This document shows positions 1-4,275 of a DNA stretch of 64,000 nt, piece by piece. The position numbers were made by a program, and so were the translations under genes. This DNA comes from Anaerolineales bacterium (GTDB lineage: Bacteria; Chloroflexota; Anaerolineae; Anaerolineales; UBA11579). Position 1 is the first letter of the stretch. Each line of letters opens with the position of its first letter. The DNA lies in contig JAHBVE010000002.1 in the NCBI GenBank assembly GCA_019637675.1, positions 207,797 to 271,796 on the forward strand. The letters run 5' to 3'. The notes beneath the pieces are model-generated. The model searched no databases. It worked only from the letters and a program-made list of their open reading frames with translations, and was not told the origin of the DNA.

Positions 1-337
1 GATGGATTGCCCAAAGCACAGGAGCTTTGCGCCAAATGCACAGCGCCGCCAGCATATTGGCATGATACATCCAAGTATGCACAACATCAGGTTCAAAGCG
101 AACAACCCGACTGTTGATCAAGAAGAGGCGCAAAAGTGAAATTGGATTCCGCGGATGGACATTCAAATACTCCACCTGAACACCTGCTTCAGAGAGAGTA
201 GTTCCAAGTGTGGTTGGCGATCCAAGGCACAAAACCCGATGCTCGTGTTGGCGAGAGTCCGGATGCGTCACCAGGCGTTGCAGCACCGTCTCGGCACCTC
301 CAACCATAAGCGTTGGAACTAAATGCAGTATCTTCAC
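1..337 (-). CDS. Glycosyltransferase, GT4-like (GT-B fold). Only the N-terminal 112 codons are present; the rest lies left of the window.
   Basis: Hand translation of the minus strand from GTG 337-335 gives VKILHLVPTLMVGGAETVLQRLV...HTWMYHANMLAAL, a typical GT4 N-terminus. The frame is open to position 1 and opens right after the in-frame TAG of the sulfotransferase (347-349). Confidence 0.65.
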   Translation of the reverse strand, partial: MKILHLVPTLMVGGAETVLQRLVTHPDSRQHEHRVLCLGSPTTLGTTLSEAGVQVEYLNVHPRNPISLLRLFLINSRVVRFEPDVVHTWMYHANMLAALCIWRKAPVLWAIH

Positions 338-346
338 GCCAAGGAC

Positions 347-1249
347 CTAGCTGGGCAACCAGGCAGACAGGTCACGCTGGATAATCAACTCCAAATCACG
401 CACTCCTTCTGCAAACCTATGGCGCAAGTGATTCTCCAGGTTGGGGTCCATTGGCGGATAAGCAAACGGCTTCGTATTGCTTCGCATCAGGAAAGTCTTG
501 AGTCTGTAGCGCATCTCCAAGGGTAGGAGACGCTTCACCACATCCTTGGCTCGTGAACGACCGCGGAGCAGAGTTTGCACGGTTCGAGATAGTGGTTGCC
601 CGGCCTTGTTGCTTTGAATCTTTTTAAACTGCGCTGGCTCTATATTTAAAAACCCATAGAGACCTTGGAGATAATCATTGGTAGGGTCTAGCAAATCCTC
701 TTGAAGCAAGAAATAAAACGAATCCTTGGAGAAGAATTCAAGAAACTTCCGAATTTGCCTTGCATACATACTGCCGCGCACATAACCGTACTGCATGGAG
801 CCTTGGGTGGTCAATTCATGAGCGAACTCTACCAGACGGGCATCTTCTTTTTGAAGAGCTTCAGCAAACGGCAACGTTTCGGTGCCCTCTTTGATCATAT
901 TCCAGTACCAAGAATAGGAGCGCTTAACCGGATCCCGCAGAATGACGATCAGCTTAGGTTTCTCGGCCTCTGCTTGATACTGCTCGGCCATTCTAGGCGC
1001 CACTTTGTCTGCCCAATAAAGGTAGTGAGGAGTGGCTTCGCCGCGCAGAGCATAATCCTCACTATCTTGAAAAAAACTTTGCTTGTACCACTTGGGGCCC
1101 TGAAGGTAGTATTCGTCCTTCGAAAAAAACATAGGCTCCTTTGCATAGGAAAGGTAGACATCAGGATGCCCCTTAATCATTTCGTAGAGCGAGGTGGTGC
1201 CGGCTTTGGCCGCTCCTATAATGTAGAAGTTTGGCATCCCTTTAATCAT
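347..1249 (-). CDS. PAPS-dependent sulfotransferase
   Basis: ORF 347..1303. The 5'-PSB loop (IIGAAKAGTTSL) and 3'-PB motif (RDPVKRSYSWY) are present. Start set to ATG 1249 (MIKGMPNFYIIG), which overlaps the upstream stop as ATGATTAA; ATG 1237 is also possible. Confidence 0.8.
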   Translation of the reverse strand: MIKGMPNFYIIGAAKAGTTSLYEMIKGHPDVYLSYAKEPMFFSKDEYYLQGPKWYKQSFFQDSEDYALRGEATPHYLYWADKVAPRMAEQYQAEAEKPKLIVILRDPVKRSYSWYWNMIKEGTETLPFAEALQKEDARLVEFAHELTTQGSMQYGYVRGSMYARQIRKFLEFFSKDSFYFLLQEDLLDPTNDYLQGLYGFLNIEPAQFKKIQSNKAGQPLSRTVQTLLRGRSRAKDVVKRLLPLEMRYRLKTFLMRSNTKPFAYPPMDPNLENHLRHRFAEGVRDLELIIQRDLSAWLPS

Positions 1250-2375
1250 TGACCCCTTCACTTTCAAATAACTGGATATAGCTTTCTGCGGCATAGGGAG
1301 CAATGTACTGTTTAGCTCTTTCTTTCAGTTGCCGCGCATCTTGGGGATCCGCGAGCACCTCAAGAATAGCTTGCGCCATCTCGGTTGCATCTCCAACTGG
1401 CACCAATTTTCCGTAGAAGCCATTATGGAGGATTTCGCGCGGGCCGGCTGGGCAATTGGTGGAAACCACGGATGTGCCGCACGCCATTGCCTCAATCAGA
1501 ACGCTAGGCAGACCTTCCCAGAGAGAGGAGAGCACGAAAAGGTTTGCTCGGGCGACATACCGCAATGGGTTGTCCACATATCCGGGTAAGGATACGATCT
1601 CTTGTAGAGCTAATTGCTCTACTAGAGCCTCTAGATTCGCCCTTTCACCCCCCTCCCCCAGGATCAGGAGCTGCACCGGCCGCGACTGATTGACTTTGTC
1701 CATAGCTCGAATCAAGGTATCAAAAGCCTTTTGGGGAGCCAACCGGCCTACGGCAATCACGAAAGGCTCTTGGATTTCCTTGAACCATGGATCTTCAGCA
1801 GGCAATTCAGCTTGACTGGAGAAATCGCCAGGCAAAATGGAATTATATACAACGAAAATCTCTTCATTTTGAAAGCCAGCCAGAGCGGCCAAGTCATCTG
1901 CTGCATCTTGCGATACAGCTAAAACTTTGTGTGCATAGGGATAAAACAATCGTGCAAGCAAAGGCCGTAAACGATCAGCAAGCTTCTTGCTATTGCGGAC
2001 TACTGAAGTCATATGGTTATGTTCAACCACATACAATAGAGCGCGGCTTTTAGCCCGCCAGCTTGCAAAAATGCTCAGGATATTTAAATGTGTCTGATTC
2101 GAAATGAATATATCAGGTTGATGCTGCTTGAAGTAATTCGCCAAGGCACGGACGCCATACAAACTGCGGGAGGAGCGCAGATCAAACACAGTAACTGTTT
2201 GACCAACTCCTGAGCGTAAGGCGCCTCCTGCGGCAGAAAGCACGACAAGGTCAACCTGATAACCTCGTCGAGCTAGTTCATTGGCCAAGTTGATAGTCAC
2301 ACGTTCAACACCTCCGGCACGAAAGGAGGCTACAAGTAGAGCAACTCTGGAAATTCTTTTTGGTGTCAGTTCCAT
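1242..2375 (-). CDS. Glycosyltransferase family 4 (Glycos_transf_1-like)
   Basis: 377 aa. N-terminal VALLVASFRAGGVERV and C-terminal EGLPSVLIEAMACGTSVVSTNCPAGPREIL are typical of GT4. GAGGAG SD lies upstream of ATG 2375. Confidence 0.85.
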   Translation of the reverse strand: MELTPKRISRVALLVASFRAGGVERVTINLANELARRGYQVDLVVLSAAGGALRSGVGQTVTVFDLRSSRSLYGVRALANYFKQHQPDIFISNQTHLNILSIFASWRAKSRALLYVVEHNHMTSVVRNSKKLADRLRPLLARLFYPYAHKVLAVSQDAADDLAALAGFQNEEIFVVYNSILPGDFSSQAELPAEDPWFKEIQEPFVIAVGRLAPQKAFDTLIRAMDKVNQSRPVQLLILGEGGERANLEALVEQLALQEIVSLPGYVDNPLRYVARANLFVLSSLWEGLPSVLIEAMACGTSVVSTNCPAGPREILHNGFYGKLVPVGDATEMAQAILEVLADPQDARQLKERAKQYIAPYAAESYIQLFESEGVND

Positions 2376-2421
2376 GGGCTCCTCTTGGGCAGTATACTCG
2401 GCTCAACGATAGCTGGGACGT

Positions 2422-2460
2422 ATTCAAACTAGATTCAAACCAATGGCCGTGTAGTATAAT
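2422..2460 (+). promoter_or_regulatory. Candidate sat/cysC promoter: TATAAT plus two phased direct repeats
   Basis: TATAAT at 2455-2460. ATTCAAAC occurs at 2422-2429 and 2433-2440 (11-bp register), and the second copy covers the -35 position. No good -35 hexamer. Confidence 0.3.
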
Positions 2461-2532
2461 TTTTCAAAATTAGAAACGTAGCTGTAAAAAAAGCCTGCCA
2501 TGAGCAGGCTGTTTAATGCTCATTGGAGAATA

Positions 2533-4275
2533 ATGGCAACTCAGGAAAGCACAATACTGAACACTCCCTACGGCGGAAAATTAGTCGACCTTGTAAAAAC
2601 TGGCGATGAACGCGAGGTTCTGCGCGAACTGGCCACACACTTACCGGATGTGCGCTTATCACCGCGCTCCTTACATGATATGGAGTTGCTGGCGATGGGC
2701 GCCTTTTCACCACTTGACCGCTTCATGGGCAAGGCAGACTATGAGCGCGTGATGGAGGAAATGCGCCTGGCGAATGGTGCGCTATTCCCCATCCCCATCA
2801 CGCTGCCCGTTAAGAGCGACGAACTACCCAAGAGCGACCAGGTAGTCTTGCGCGATGTGCGCAACAATGCCTTCGCCATCATGGATATTGAGGAAACCTT
2901 TAAATGGGACCCACAAGTTGAGGCCCAAAAGGTATTGGGTTCCACAGACCCACGACACCCTTTGGTCTCTGAAATGATCCGTTGGGGCGACATTTGCATT
3001 TCAGGCCGTTTGCAAGTATTCGACCTGCCGATGTACAGCGACTTTGTAGAGTTGCGTCGCACCCCTGCTCAAGTACGAAGCCTGCTGGAGCAGATGGGAA
3101 ACAAGCATGTCGTCTTCTTCCAAACTCGCAATCCCATGCACCGCATTCATGAAGAACTGACCAAGCGAGCGGCAGAGAAGGTGCAGGGAAGCCTGGTGAT
3201 CCACCCGGTAGTTGGGCTAACAAAACCTGGAGATGTAGATCACTACACACGCGTGCGCGTATACAACAGCCTCATAGAGAATTACTATGACAAAAACAAG
3301 ACTCTATTGAGTCTCCTGCCTTTGGCCATGCGCATGGCTGGTCCACGCGAGGCGGTGTGGCACGCAATCATCCGCCGCAACTATGGAGCAACTCACTTTA
3401 TCGTCGGGCGCGACCATGCCGGACCAGGCAAAGATGGCAACGGCAACCCGTTCTACGGCCCCTACGATGCCCAGGAGCTGCTGACCAAGCATCAAGCAGA
3501 GGTTGGCGTGGAAATGGTGCCGTTCAAGGAGCTGGTGTACTTGGCAGACGAGCAACGATATGTAGAAGCAGGCCAGGAGCCGGCTGGCGCCAAGATCCTC
3601 AACATCTCCGGAACCCAGGTGCGCAATGACTATTTGGCCAAAGGTGAATATCTGCCCGAGTGGTTTACCCGCCGCGAGACCTCAGCCATTTTGATGGAAA
3701 TGTTTCCCCCGCGTCACAAACAAGGCTTTTGCCTTTGGTTCACAGGCTTGAGCGGCGCAGGCAAATCCACGGTTGCACAACTGGTGACCTCGATGCTCAT
3801 GGAGCGCGGCCGCCAGGTAACCGTGTTGGACGGGGATGTGGTCCGCACTCACCTTTCCAAGGGTCTAGGCTTCAGCCGCGAAGATCGAGATGCCAACGTT
3901 CTCCGCATTGGTTTTGTGGCCGGAGAACTGGTGCGTCAGCACGGCGCTGTGATCGCTGCAGCGATCAGCCCCTTCCGCGCGGCGCGCAATGAGTGCCGCA
4001 AGATGATCGGCGAAGATCGTTTTATTGAGATCTTTGTCAATACTCCCGTTGAAGTATGCGAGCAGCGCGATGTGAAAGGCTTGTACGCAAAGGCGCGCCG
4101 CGGCGAGATCACTGGCTTCACGGGCGTGGATGACCCGTACGAAGAACCACGCAACCCCGAGATCAACCTGGACACAGTGAACAACACTGCTGAAGAGAAC
4201 GCTCGTCAGATCATTCAGTATCTTGAAGAAAAGGGTTTAGTGCTGCCATTTGCCAGTGCAGGCAAACAGAGCTAA
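2533..4275 (+). CDS. sat/cysC: Bifunctional sulfate adenylyltransferase / adenylyl-sulfate kinase (PAPS synthesis)
   Basis: ORF 2500..4275. ATP-sulfurylase motifs [12 protein letters not shown] and GRDHAGPG are followed by a C-terminal APS-kinase part with P-loop GLSGAGKST and [21 protein letters not shown]. Start moved to ATG 2533 (GGAGA 5 nt upstream). Confidence 0.9.

Follow-up and report, generated by a model that had tools for sequence, protein, structure and literature searches.

In the capsule cluster of Vibrio sp. KMM 8419, genes for PAPS synthesis and several sulfotransferases are located together with glycosyltransferase genes in an ABC-transporter-type cluster, and this gene combination was described by the authors as a hallmark of sulfated polysaccharide synthesis (PMC11641403). 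A similar cluster was reported for Cobetia marina KMM 1449 (PMC11766843). The genetically proven sulfated exopolysaccharide cluster of Synechocystis sp. PCC 6803 (synechan, xss) comprises two sulfotransferases of different subfamilies and eight glycosyltransferases, and in other cyanobacteria sulfotransferase genes were found in ABC-type clusters (PMC8205485). NodH and KpsS are also mentioned in PMC11625862.

Here, a ~19-kb island of an Anaerolineales genome (phylum Chloroflexota) was compared to these systems. Like the cluster of Vibrio sp. KMM 8419, it combines PAPS synthesis and sulfotransferases inside an ABC-type polysaccharide locus of strain-variable content (PMC11641403). The Vibrio cluster contains a second cysDN and cysC copy beside the housekeeping assimilatory set, whereas the island encodes a single fused Sat-CysC and no assimilation. 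Vibrio, with its Gram-negative envelope, exports through Kps proteins (group 2/3 capsule), whereas the island, in a member of the Chloroflexota, encodes Wzm/Wzt, an initiator of the WecA type and GT-C enzymes. The structure of the Vibrio polymer is solved, whereas the Anaerolineales glycan is predicted from genes alone. The xss cluster shares with the island sulfotransferases of different subfamilies among glycosyltransferases, but is Wzx/Wzy-dependent, lacks a PAPS-synthesis gene and is carried, along with regulators of its own, by a megaplasmid, in a host that assimilates sulfate normally.

In rhizobia, NodP and NodQ act together with NodH, and LpsS and KpsS sulfate LPS and K-antigen. The island resembles NodPQ/NodH in linking a dedicated sulfate activation to a carbohydrate sulfotransferase for a surface or secreted glycoconjugate, and one of its sulfotransferases (ST2) is weakly NodH-like. 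Unlike Sat-CysC, NodPQ is a GTPase-coupled sulfurylase of the CysDN/CysC type and duplicates housekeeping genes. NodH acts on a lipochitooligosaccharide signal and not on an exported polymer, and the rhizobial genes, unlike the island, are plasmid-borne symbiosis genes.

The Wzm/Wzt transporters of E. coli O9a/O8 and of the Aquifex type export O-antigen with capped chains, and TagGH exports teichoic acid. The island shares with them an ABC-2 permease, an ATPase extended at its C-terminus, an initiator of the WecA/TagO type and, as predicted, a polymer completed in the cytoplasm before export. Immediately following wzt is, in both cases, a gene for a modifying enzyme, the terminator WbdD in E. 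coli O9a and the sulfotransferase ST1 in the island. We know of no sulfate cap in these O-antigen and TagGH systems, and GT-C enzymes are found in the island in place of their WaaL or LCP ligases. To our knowledge, no sulfated glycan has so far been isolated from any member of the Anaerolineales or chemically shown in the phylum Chloroflexota. All enzyme types of the island are known and its logic is that of NodPQ/NodH and the sulfated Vibrio capsules, so that the novelty lies in the phylum.

Gene content of the island

The island (C2:~199000-217800) is flanked by pyruvate:ferredoxin oxidoreductase genes on the left and by tRNA-Gly and pyruvate kinase on the right. The genes at positions 1-4275 of the window, meaning the whole analyzed stretch of 64,000 nucleotides, belong to the right-hand third of the island, most of which lies to the left of the window. 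In total, the island encodes a WecA-type initiating transferase, four GT4 glycosyltransferases, a Wzm/Wzt exporter, three intact and one broken sulfotransferase, Sat-CysC and three GT-C-like membrane proteins. Profile matches in the left part were PF00953 (WecA-type), GT4, ABC2_membrane, ABC_tran with Wzt_C, Sulfotransfer_1, GT4, Sulfotransfer_3/Stf0 and a sulfotransferase fragment. With 29.5 bits, Wzt_C falls slightly short of its cut-off (30.4 bits). The same protein aligned to the full-length O-antigen-type transporter 8DKU/7K2T with an E-value of 7e-68 and into the C-terminal region, followed by TagH/TarH. The part in the window consists of GT4, sulfotransferase, GT4, Sat-CysC and two PMT_2 proteins, with the following features (window positions):

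1..337, minus strand: GT4c glycosyltransferase, 5′ part, 112 codons (PF13439 47 bits, PF13579 39 bits)
347..1249, minus strand: ST4, PAPS-dependent sulfotransferase, 300 aa (PF00685 41 bits; PF13469)
1242..2375, minus strand: GT4d glycosyltransferase, 377 aa, opening the minus-strand run (PF00534 131 bits, PF13439 92 bits)
2376..2532, no strand: divergent intergenic region, 157 nt (sequence read directly)
2533..4275, plus strand: Sat-CysC, fused ATP sulfurylase/APS kinase (PAPS synthase), 580 aa (PF14306, PF01747, PF01583)
4424..5803, plus strand: polytopic membrane protein, 459 aa, first of three 3′ of sat-cysC
5812..8205, plus strand: GT-C-type (PMT_2/ArnT-like) membrane glycosyltransferase, 797 aa (PF13231 67 bits, residues 75-225)
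8199..9734, plus strand: second GT-C-type (PMT_2) membrane glycosyltransferase, 511 aa (PF13231 37 bits)
9941..10013, plus strand: tRNA-Gly(CCC), right end of the island (ARAGORN; C2:217737-217809)
10028-11539, after tRNA-Gly(CCC): pyruvate kinase (PF00224)

The sequence-only reading had described a GT4-sulfotransferase-GT4 operon facing the PAPS synthase. This locus is real and all four assignments were confirmed by HMM annotation, but its extent was understated, since the 19-kb island also includes three further sulfotransferase genes, the exporter and the initiating transferase. The gene order, coordinates and tight spacing of the minus-strand triplet were borne out as well. The stop codon TAA of GT4d overlaps the ATG of ST4 by 8 nt in ATGATTAA, with GAAGGGG just 5′ of the overlap, and the TAG of ST4 is followed by a 9-nt gap and the GTG start of GT4c. 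This spacing is compatible with the translational coupling that had been claimed. GT4c, with which the run ends, is complete at 373 aa in a stop-free frame crossing the window edge (left flank L002:19216-20000) to C2:207012. GT4d matched PglJ and stp2 of NCBIfam only in part, with all scores far under the cut-offs.

The open reading frame of Sat-CysC opens at ATG 2500. Since the ATG at 2533 has a Shine-Dalgarno-like GGAGA sequence and the alignments of relatives begin at residue 1-9 of the 580-aa form, the spacer was set to 2376-2532, in agreement with the length of 157 nt given before. It contains TATAAT at 2455-2460 and, as a candidate element, the hairpin AGCCTGC-CATG-AGCAGGCT at 2492-2510, followed by T7 on the minus strand. 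In a consensus scan for sigma-70 promoters and terminators, window 1-10100 did not exceed shuffled sequence in the number of sites, and the earlier label of a control region was accordingly reduced to intergenic region.

Searches of Pfam, NCBIfam and PDB sequences gave no match for the 459-aa membrane protein, and its role in the pathway is assigned solely by position. It may be Wzy- or ligase-like, which would mean a different assembly route. The 797-aa GT-C protein, whose gene overlaps that of the 511-aa protein by 7 nt, has a long C-terminal part outside any assigned family and gave no match in the PDB sequence search.

Sulfate activation and sulfotransferases

Sat-CysC consists of PUA_2, ATP-sulfurylase and APS_kinase domains in this order. 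It scored 834 bits against NF004040 (cut-off 669) and matched the bifunctional SAT/APS kinase of Aquifex aeolicus (PDB 2GKS) with an E-value of 4.9e-229. Both enzymes have the same order of PUA-like, ATP sulfurylase and C-terminal APS kinase domains and align end to end. The sulfurylase motifs, the P-loop and ISPF are all readable in the translation. The PAPS synthase therefore looks intact by its sequence, as had been proposed for a single polypeptide with an intact P-loop. The Aquifex enzyme was studied within chemolithotroph sulfur metabolism, unlike Sat-CysC, whose gene belongs to a glycan locus and whose genome lacks reductive sulfur genes.

ST4 contains the PAPS-binding loop GAAKAGTTS and the 3′-phosphate motif RDPVKRSYS, the two motifs noted previously. 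Its open frame extends to TTG 1303; the likely start is ATG 1249, which overlaps the GT4d stop, and no signal or transmembrane segment was found at the N-terminus. The best PDB match was 3RNL (E 1.7e-33), followed by heparan sulfate 3-OST-5/3A1/1 and NDST. In an alignment of 121 homologues, K15 and R105 are invariant (121/121 each) and S113 is present in 117, while position 71 is E in 110 and D in 11 and aligns with the catalytic Glu of heparan sulfate 3-O-sulfotransferases. ST4 thus looks competent, with the PSB Lys, the PB Arg/Ser and the acidic base position conserved. A loss of the catalytic base or PAPS contacts, named earlier as evidence against sulfation, was not found in this alignment.

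Two of the intact island sulfotransferases are heparan-sulfate-3-OST-like and one, ST2, is NodH/Stf0-like (PF09037 and PF13469; PDB 9VKI with a weak E-value of 7e-4). The broken one has at least three frame changes. A fifth, SULT-like sulfotransferase (C2:451478-452290) is located far from any glycan gene.

The ATP sulfurylase of Sat-CysC is the only one in the genome, and a second APS kinase was not found. No match to PAPS_reduct (CysH/CysD) or NIR_SIR sulfite reductase was obtained, and the best AprA score was 22 bits (cut-off 642), these absences being those of a 93%-complete, 3-contig assembly and not absolute. The genome also encodes a SulP permease and two candidate Inositol_P proteins (CysQ-type). 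Thus, the sequence-only reading was right that no cysH/cysI/cysD-type gene is located near Sat-CysC, and the search for a second, assimilatory cluster showed the whole reductive branch to be absent from the genome. Sat-CysC is literally the only sulfate-activating enzyme, a point that had been held against a role in sulfation if joined to cysteine synthesis; this link fails, as the CysK-like genes are either on another contig or at a distance of 160 kb and no pathway from PAPS to sulfide was found.

Among 60 relatives, all 37 genomes with fused Sat-CysC have at least one sulfotransferase, compared to 6 of 23 without it (Fisher p = 2.6e-10), whereas CysH shows no association (8/37 vs 7/23; p = 0.54); both statistics ignore phylogeny. 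In the genus, Sat-CysC was found in 15 of 22 genomes, all 15 with sulfotransferases, and six of the seven others also lack a sulfotransferase. PAPS_reduct did not exceed the family cut-off in any of the 22, the sole exception being a 25-bit partial match in a 510-aa frame (G016). The genomes without CysH/CysD include 1- and 2-contig assemblies of 95-96% completeness. Given this pattern throughout the genus, an assembly gap is unlikely. In larger-genome members of the family, CysH occurs alongside Sat-CysC.

In at least 24 of the 37 genomes, the distance from sat-cysC to a sulfotransferase gene is 5.2 kb or less, and in three (G018, G020, G028) Wzm-Wzt, GT4, sulfotransferase and Sat-CysC follow each other inside 18 kb. 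In G018, sat-cysC is flanked by PMT_2 GT-C genes on one side and NeuB/CMP-sugar genes on the other. G002 has kept sat-cysC, but its only sulfotransferase is distant, glycan genes are missing alongside, and the chromosomal slot of the island is taken by an integrase/defence island. A glycan cluster nearby is thus not required for Sat-CysC to persist. The locus differs between species, with sat-cysC as the conserved anchor. The identity of Sat-CysC across the genus (83-90%, dropping with kinship) fits vertical descent under constraint. The suggested association of sulfotransferase and sat/cysC was upheld at genus, family and order level.

Proposed pathway and alternative explanations

The cell lacks sulfate-to-cysteine genes but makes PAPS in a sugar-polymer island with three intact sulfotransferases, and its most likely product is therefore a sulfated surface glycan. 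We consider it probable that the island builds a polyprenol-linked glycan of this kind by an ABC-transporter-dependent route. The absence of PAPS/APS reductase, CysD and sulfite reductase from the genome and the whole genus suggests that sulfate activation serves sulfation only. This agrees with the earlier proposal of a PAPS synthase feeding glycan sulfation and not assimilation, which the HMMs, the missing reductive genes, the synteny and the sulfotransferase residues support. Judged by family membership and gene order, the WecA/MraY-type phosphoglycosyl transferase would start the chain on polyprenyl phosphate at the cytoplasmic face, and the four GT4 enzymes would extend it. The three intact cytoplasmic sulfotransferases would add sulfate esters, using PAPS supplied from sulfate by Sat-CysC. 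The finished lipid-linked chain would be exported by Wzm/Wzt, and the three GT-C-like proteins could act outside the membrane in transfer to the final acceptor or further decoration.

It is highly improbable that Sat-CysC instead initiates assimilatory sulfate reduction or a sulfur pathway that yields energy, with reductive genes unassembled or of an unrecognised type. Its status as sole sulfate-activating enzyme, the SulP permease and CysK-like genes, the 93% completeness and the co-presence of CysH in larger-genome relatives would fit such a role. Against it stand the missing PAPS_reduct, NIR_SIR and AprA, the lack of CysH/CysD in all 22 genus genomes, the absence of Sat-CysC from genus members that lack sulfotransferases and the lacking association with CysH. 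Moreover, neither APS-reductase-based nor dissimilatory routes require an APS kinase domain. It is also very unlikely that the island is an accessory cassette, acquired recently or in decay, that is unexpressed or non-functional, with Sat-CysC as a leftover. The GC content of the island (44-52%) is 10-18 points under that of the genome (62%), one sulfotransferase is broken, the slot in G002 holds an integrase/defence island and Sat-CysC is missing from 7 of 22 genus genomes. However, low GC is usual in surface-polysaccharide loci, the 15 other island genes are long open frames with intact motifs, neither an integrase nor an att-like repeat of the tRNA was found in the island, and the identity of Sat-CysC tracks kinship.

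Rather unlikely, too, is a short membrane glycolipid, small metabolite or protein as the sulfotransferase target, with the ABC transporter exporting that product. ST2 is similar to NodH/Stf0-type enzymes, which act on glycolipid precursors; precedents for a glycolipid target are NodH on lipochitooligosaccharide and Stf0 on trehalose. GT4 enzymes also make glycolipids, the fifth sulfotransferase is distant from glycan genes, and no chain-length regulator or polymerase was identified. A sulfated polymer is better matched by the sulfotransferases interleaved and tightly spaced with four GT4s, by the WecA-type polyprenyl-phosphate transferase with an O-antigen-type Wzm/Wzt carrying a C-terminal extension, and by the GT-C enzymes 3′ of sat-cysC, which use lipid-linked donors. 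After one bacterial sulfotransferase, the nearest solved homologues of ST4 are polysaccharide sulfotransferases. Elsewhere, a close ST4 homologue adjoins Wzt and a GT4.

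Gene content and boundaries of the glycan locus

The four genes described in the sequence-only reading were all recovered in the ORF listing and by profile searches. Together with the tRNA gene that closes the locus on the right, they are located in the window as follows:

from 337, continuing beyond the window, minus strand: second glycosyltransferase family 4 (GT4) protein, 373 aa in the genome
347-1249, minus strand: sulfotransferase ST4, 300 aa, likely start ATG 1249
1242-2375, minus strand: GT4 protein, 377 aa
2533-4275, plus strand: fused ATP sulfurylase/APS kinase (Sat-CysC; PUA_2 + ATP-sulfurylase + APS-kinase), 580 aa, likely start 2533
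9941-10013: tRNA-Gly(CCC), followed directly by the pyruvate kinase gene

The GT4 and ST4 genes overlap by 8 nt (ATGATTAA) with GAAGGGG located just before, and the gap between ST4 and the next GT4 gene is 9 nt. The open frame of ST4 extends to 1303, with ATG 1249 being the preferred start. For Sat-CysC, ATG 2533 is preceded by GGAGA and the alignments of the relatives begin there. Given this start, the divergent spacer has the previously reported length of 157 nt. The control function that had been ascribed to it gained no support: in a consensus scan of positions 1-10100, promoter-like sites were fewer than in shuffled sequences and terminator-like sites were within noise. The spacer is therefore treated as a plain intergenic region.

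At positions 2486-2512, the sat-cysC leader contains an A7 run followed by an 8-bp GC-rich hairpin (AGCCTGC CATG AGCAGGCT), with an upstream in-frame ATG (2500) falling within the loop. On the minus strand this element has the canonical form of an intrinsic terminator (hairpin + T7) aimed at the start of the GT4 operon. The hairpin could be a shield for this operon against antisense read-through or a leader element.

The window occupies C2:207797-271796 (contig C2, JAHBVE010000002.1), and the genes listed above are a slice of a larger unit. In the 1-kb GC profile of this contig, a block of 44-52% GC ranges from approximately C2:199000 to 217800, compared to 62% for the genome (2.25 Mb in 3 contigs, rated 93% complete). 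Only sat-cysC has a higher GC content within the block (54-57%). To the left of the window, the block encodes a WecA/MraY-type transferase (PF00953), a GT4, the ABC-2 permease Wzm, the ATPase Wzt, the sulfotransferase ST1, a further GT4, the sulfotransferase ST2 and a sulfotransferase remnant. To the right of sat-cysC, a 459-aa polytopic protein is followed by two PMT_2 (GT-C) proteins. Three intact sulfotransferases, four GT4s and the exporter are thus all found inside 19 kb, with 1.3 kb between ST4 and Sat-CysC, which places a sulfate-activation gene and sulfotransferases inside one glycan cluster. The cluster is a variant without nonulosonic-acid genes.

The initiator (L002:11248-12300, minus strand, in the stretch abutting the window on the left) is of the WecA/TagO type and matches PF00953 with 114 bits. 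Wzm (PF01061, 69 bits) and Wzt (PF00005, 70 bits) are encoded by adjacent, overlapping genes. Among solved structures, Wzt is closest to a full-length transporter of the O-antigen type (8DKU/7K2T, E 7e-68), with TagH/TarH and RfbE next. Its alignment to the 404-aa solved Wzt reaches residue 353, and the C-terminal Wzt_C domain (PF14524, residues 280-397) was scored at 29.5 bits, just under the cut-off of 30.4. No Pfam match to Wzx or Wzy was found among the island proteins. The 459-aa polytopic protein (4424-5803) matches no family at all, and a PDB sequence search with this protein and the 797-aa GT-C protein gave nothing usable. With an initiator and an ABC-2 permease/ATPase pair, the locus is predicted to encode a polyprenol-linked Wzm/Wzt route.

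The low-GC block ends at tRNA-Gly(CCC), and its deviant composition is that of a tRNA-flanked island. No integrase was identified among the island ORFs, and no repeat of at least 13 nt of the tRNA with its 60-nt flanks was present in C2:196000-217600. A classical tRNA-integrated mobile island was rejected, since both integrase and att-like repeat are missing. The comparison with a sister species (G002, see below) favours a description of the island as a variable polysaccharide locus with pyruvate:ferredoxin oxidoreductase (POR) and pyruvate kinase as its conserved flanks. A perfect bidirectional terminator hairpin (AAAAAGCCCCGC-AAAGA-TGCGGGGCTTTTT) was found between the POR beta gene and the WecA-type gene at C2:~199000-199035; it coincides with the left edge of the low-GC island.

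PAPS synthase and sulfotransferases

Sat-CysC matches NF004040 with 833.9 bits (cut-off 669) over profile positions 5-570 of 572. The Pfam domains PUA_2, ATP-sulfurylase and APS_kinase cover residues 22-175, 184-400 and 408-558, respectively, and the protein aligns end to end with the bifunctional SAT/APS kinase of Aquifex aeolicus (2GKS, E 4.9e-229). In some fused Sat-CysC homologues the kinase-like domain is dead and regulatory. Here, the motifs of both halves which we take to be catalytic, including the P-loop and ISPF, are present and identical or conservatively exchanged compared to 2GKS. Sat-CysC is predicted to be of the intact bifunctional sulfate adenylyltransferase/adenylylsulfate kinase type.

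The best solved match of ST4 is the bacterial sulfotransferase 3RNL (E 1.7e-33), followed by heparan sulfate 3-O-sulfotransferases and NDST. Its PSB loop GAAKAGTTS, in which K15 is conserved in 121 of 121 homologues, pairs with the KGGT loop of 3-OST-5. The 3'-phosphate motif RDPVKRSYS aligns with REPTTRAIS of the same enzyme (R105 in 121, R110 in 119 and S113 in 117 of the 121 homologues). In the alignment, E71 (G-E-A-T-P-H-Y) corresponds to the Glu within I-E-K-S-P-A-Y of 3-OST-5, and the position is acidic in all 121 homologues (E in 110, D in 11). In a recent review, the PSB Lys, the PB Arg/Ser and the catalytic base were described as the defining features of polysaccharide sulfotransferases (PMC11625862). 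The base is a His, or a Glu as in HS3ST1/NST1, and in the 3-OSTs it is the Glu aligned with E71 (PMC11625862). The conservation of all three features across the homologues speaks against a lack of PAPS contacts or catalytic base, which the sequence-only reading had named as a refutation. ST4 is thus predicted to be a PAPS-dependent sulfotransferase (PF00685/PF13469) of the heparan sulfate 3-OST/NST-like subgroup, probably with transfer to a saccharide.

ST1 is a paralogue of ST4 (35% identity), and ST2 is Sulfotransfer_3/Stf0-like and weakly NodH-like. Neither a signal peptide nor a membrane segment was found at the start of ST4, ST1 or ST2, which fits to a use of PAPS in the cytoplasm. The closest named homologue of ST4 is encoded in an Anaerolineales MAG (P0002, 60% identity). 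Another homologue (P0008, 52% identity; L043, an ENA contig) adjoins a Wzt (ABC_tran + Wzt_C) and a GT4. The genes of this contig are broken into many fragments, as in a long-read assembly, and a polyketide-synthase-like gene set follows.

The remnant of a fourth sulfotransferase (C2:206285-207015; L002:18489-19219) is full-length and broken across three reading frames. It contains an in-frame stop and no fewer than three frame changes of a single base each, so that its GSGTTW loop, GEATPAY and RDPID are found in different frames. Since the neighbouring genes are all intact, it is more probably a true pseudogene than the result of an assembly error. A fifth, SULT-like sulfotransferase (C2:451478-452290, minus strand; PF00685, 82 bits) with a YPNSGRTW loop and an RSGSVGGWRN motif is another PAPS consumer. 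It was missed by tblastn with the island sulfotransferases and detected in the Pfam-based genome search. An MsrB-like gene immediately precedes it and the genes of two large membrane proteins come next; the distance to the PAPS synthase gene is 240 kb.

The genome encodes a single ATP sulfurylase and a SulP permease. A second APS kinase, any member of the PAPS_reduct family (which covers CysH and CysD), any NIR_SIR sulfite reductase, assimilatory or dissimilatory, and AprA were all absent from the genome. A dissimilatory or sulfite-oxidising role of Sat was rejected on account of the missing AprA and NIR_SIR. CysK-like genes are present, far from the glycan locus. A second, assimilatory cluster elsewhere in the genome, for which the sequence-only reading had left room, was not found, as CysH, CysD and sulfite reductase are lacking. 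Loss of the reductive genes in an assembly gap is unlikely, because no convincing PAPS_reduct match was obtained in any of the 22 genomes of the genus, some of them in 1-2 contigs at 95-96% completeness. The same reading would have taken sat/cysC as sole sulfate-activation genes, co-regulated with cysteine biosynthesis, as evidence against sulfation. They are indeed the only ones; since there is no route from PAPS to sulfide, a sole activation gene here argues for sulfation. The sat of this genus can serve neither sulfur respiration nor assimilation and tracks sulfotransferases and glycan genes instead. Two Inositol_P proteins are candidates for the removal of PAP.

Conservation in related genomes

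Among the named relatives, the nearest are MAGs that carry the label Anaerolineales bacterium. Fused Sat-CysC was identified in 37 of 60 relatives, with identities of 83-90% within the genus and 60-78% within family and order. At least one Sulfotransfer_1 match was found in all 37 genomes with Sat-CysC compared to 6 of the 23 without (Fisher p = 2.6e-10), whereas CysH showed no association (8 of 37 and 7 of 23, respectively; Fisher p = 0.54); both tests are uncorrected for phylogeny and could be inflated by shared ancestry. Four of the six genomes having a sulfotransferase without the fusion encode a stand-alone CysC. Of the 7 genomes of the genus that lack Sat-CysC, 6 lack sulfotransferases as well. 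The distance between sat-cysC and a sulfotransferase gene does not exceed 5.2 kb in at least 24 of the 37 genomes, so that the pairing noted in the window extends to these relatives.

In three relatives (G018, G020 and G028), Wzm-Wzt, GT4, sulfotransferase and Sat-CysC are found inside 18 kb of normal GC content, the Wzm and Wzt being 50% and 44% identical to those described here. The surroundings of sat-cysC in G018 comprise GT2, a TagF-like protein, a sulfotransferase, a Gfo/Idh/MocA oxidoreductase, two PMT_2 proteins, an SDR, a CMP-sugar synthetase and NeuB. The sister species G002 (MAG Anaerolineales TGS_CHL6, JAHCIJ010000001.1) shares the flanks (POR 92%, pyruvate kinase 93% identity), with sat-cysC directly after POR, no glycan genes in the slot and only one, distant sulfotransferase. 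Downstream of its sat-cysC, a 14-kb low-GC block encodes a tyrosine recombinase, a PD-(D/E)XK nuclease, two UvrD-like helicases and a Type ISP restriction enzyme. From the comparison of these genomes it follows that POR and pyruvate kinase enclose a slot for a variable surface-glycan locus, of which sat-cysC is the constant member. The slot is a hotspot for glycan and defence cassettes alike.

Across 151 sampled genomes of the class, the fusion exceeded the family cut-off in 33, and sat and/or cysC were detected at E <=1e-50 in 102. In one relative (G047, 6.4 Mb in 1 contig), the sat-cysC homologue at C1:4455134-4456836 is split into three frames and the genome contains no sulfotransferase match, which looks like a PAPS synthase decaying where its client enzymes are absent. 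In a genome from another family of the class (G139), an 871-aa protein (L045:3136-5751, minus strand) consists of an ATP sulfurylase fused to a type I phosphodiesterase/nucleotide pyrophosphatase (PUA_2 + ATP-sulfurylase + PF01663) without an APS kinase. We know of no description of such a fusion. The genes directly after it are a stand-alone cysC and one for a DSPc-phosphatase/hexapeptide-transferase, and similar Sat-phosphodiesterase frames of ~870-900 aa are found in many other Anaerolineae families.

Proposed sulfation route and comparison with known systems

The proposal of the sequence-only reading that the PAPS synthase feeds glycan sulfation is supported by the observed gene content, order and spacing, the integrity of the motifs, the missing reductive sulfur genes, the co-occurrence and the synteny. 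The product is probably a glycan or glycoconjugate that carries sulfate, and sulfation is probably the sole purpose for which PAPS is made. From the gene set we infer a route, the details of which (priming, extension, export and finishing) have about an even chance of being correct. The WecA-type enzyme would prime polyprenyl phosphate and the four GT4s would lengthen the chain in the cytoplasm, where ST1, ST2 and ST4 would sulfate it with PAPS supplied by Sat-CysC. Wzm/Wzt would then carry the chain out and, once outside the membrane, it may be completed or attached by the GT-C-like proteins.

Glycan clusters that contain a sulfation module of their own are a known kind of system, to which this locus adds a member from the Chloroflexota. 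Rhizobial NodPQ/NodH follows the same logic, as does the cluster for a sulfated capsule in Vibrio sp. KMM 8419, where second copies of cysDN and cysC occur with three sulfotransferases and an ABC exporter (PMC11641403). Both of these modules duplicate genes of a housekeeping assimilatory set. In contrast, Sat-CysC is not a duplicate, since the genome contains a single Sat, a single CysC and no CysH, CysD or sulfite reductase. In the synechan cluster, which is Wzx/Wzy-dependent and lacks PAPS genes, sulfotransferases occur between glycosyltransferases (PMC8205485). The locus thus differs from the known clusters in its single fused, non-duplicate Sat-CysC, in a host without an assimilation pathway and in the phylum. 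No description of such a cluster was found in the full-text literature containing both 'sulfotransferase' and 'Anaerolineae'.

Anaerolineae, about whose envelopes very little is known, rank among the most abundant uncultured bacteria of sediments, sludge and salt marshes. Their very common sat is counted under sulfur respiration or assimilation in metagenomic surveys. In a salt-marsh study, 53 of 55 Anaerolineae MAGs carried sat, compared to a single one with a complete dissimilatory pathway (PMC11748557). Sulfation could explain this excess. If so, part of the 'sulfur-cycling potential' credited to these bacteria would be surface-glycan sulfation, and the locus matters for its lineage as well as for the reassignment of the 'orphan' sulfur gene sat-cysC. 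Anaerolineales would also be producers of sulfated polysaccharides, compared to the degraders reported so far: in a Shark Bay study, both Chloroflexi MAGs had sulfatase genes and no sulfotransferase gene (PMC9723792). There would further be a large unstudied family of bacterial carbohydrate sulfotransferases, together with a compact PAPS synthase, that could be used to produce sulfated glycans.

In the gene order wzm-wzt-ST1, only 2 nt separate wzt from ST1. The order matches that in E. coli O9a (wzm-wzt-wbdD), with wzt followed by the gene of the terminator enzyme WbdD. It is conceivable, though improbable, that sulfate, besides decorating the repeat unit, also forms a non-reducing-end cap which halts chain growth and is read by the Wzt C-terminal domain as an export signal. 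To our knowledge, a sulfate cap as chain-length or export signal has not been described for any ABC-dependent glycan pathway. Sulfate activation would then have a structural-signalling role only, in a genus that abandoned sulfate assimilation.
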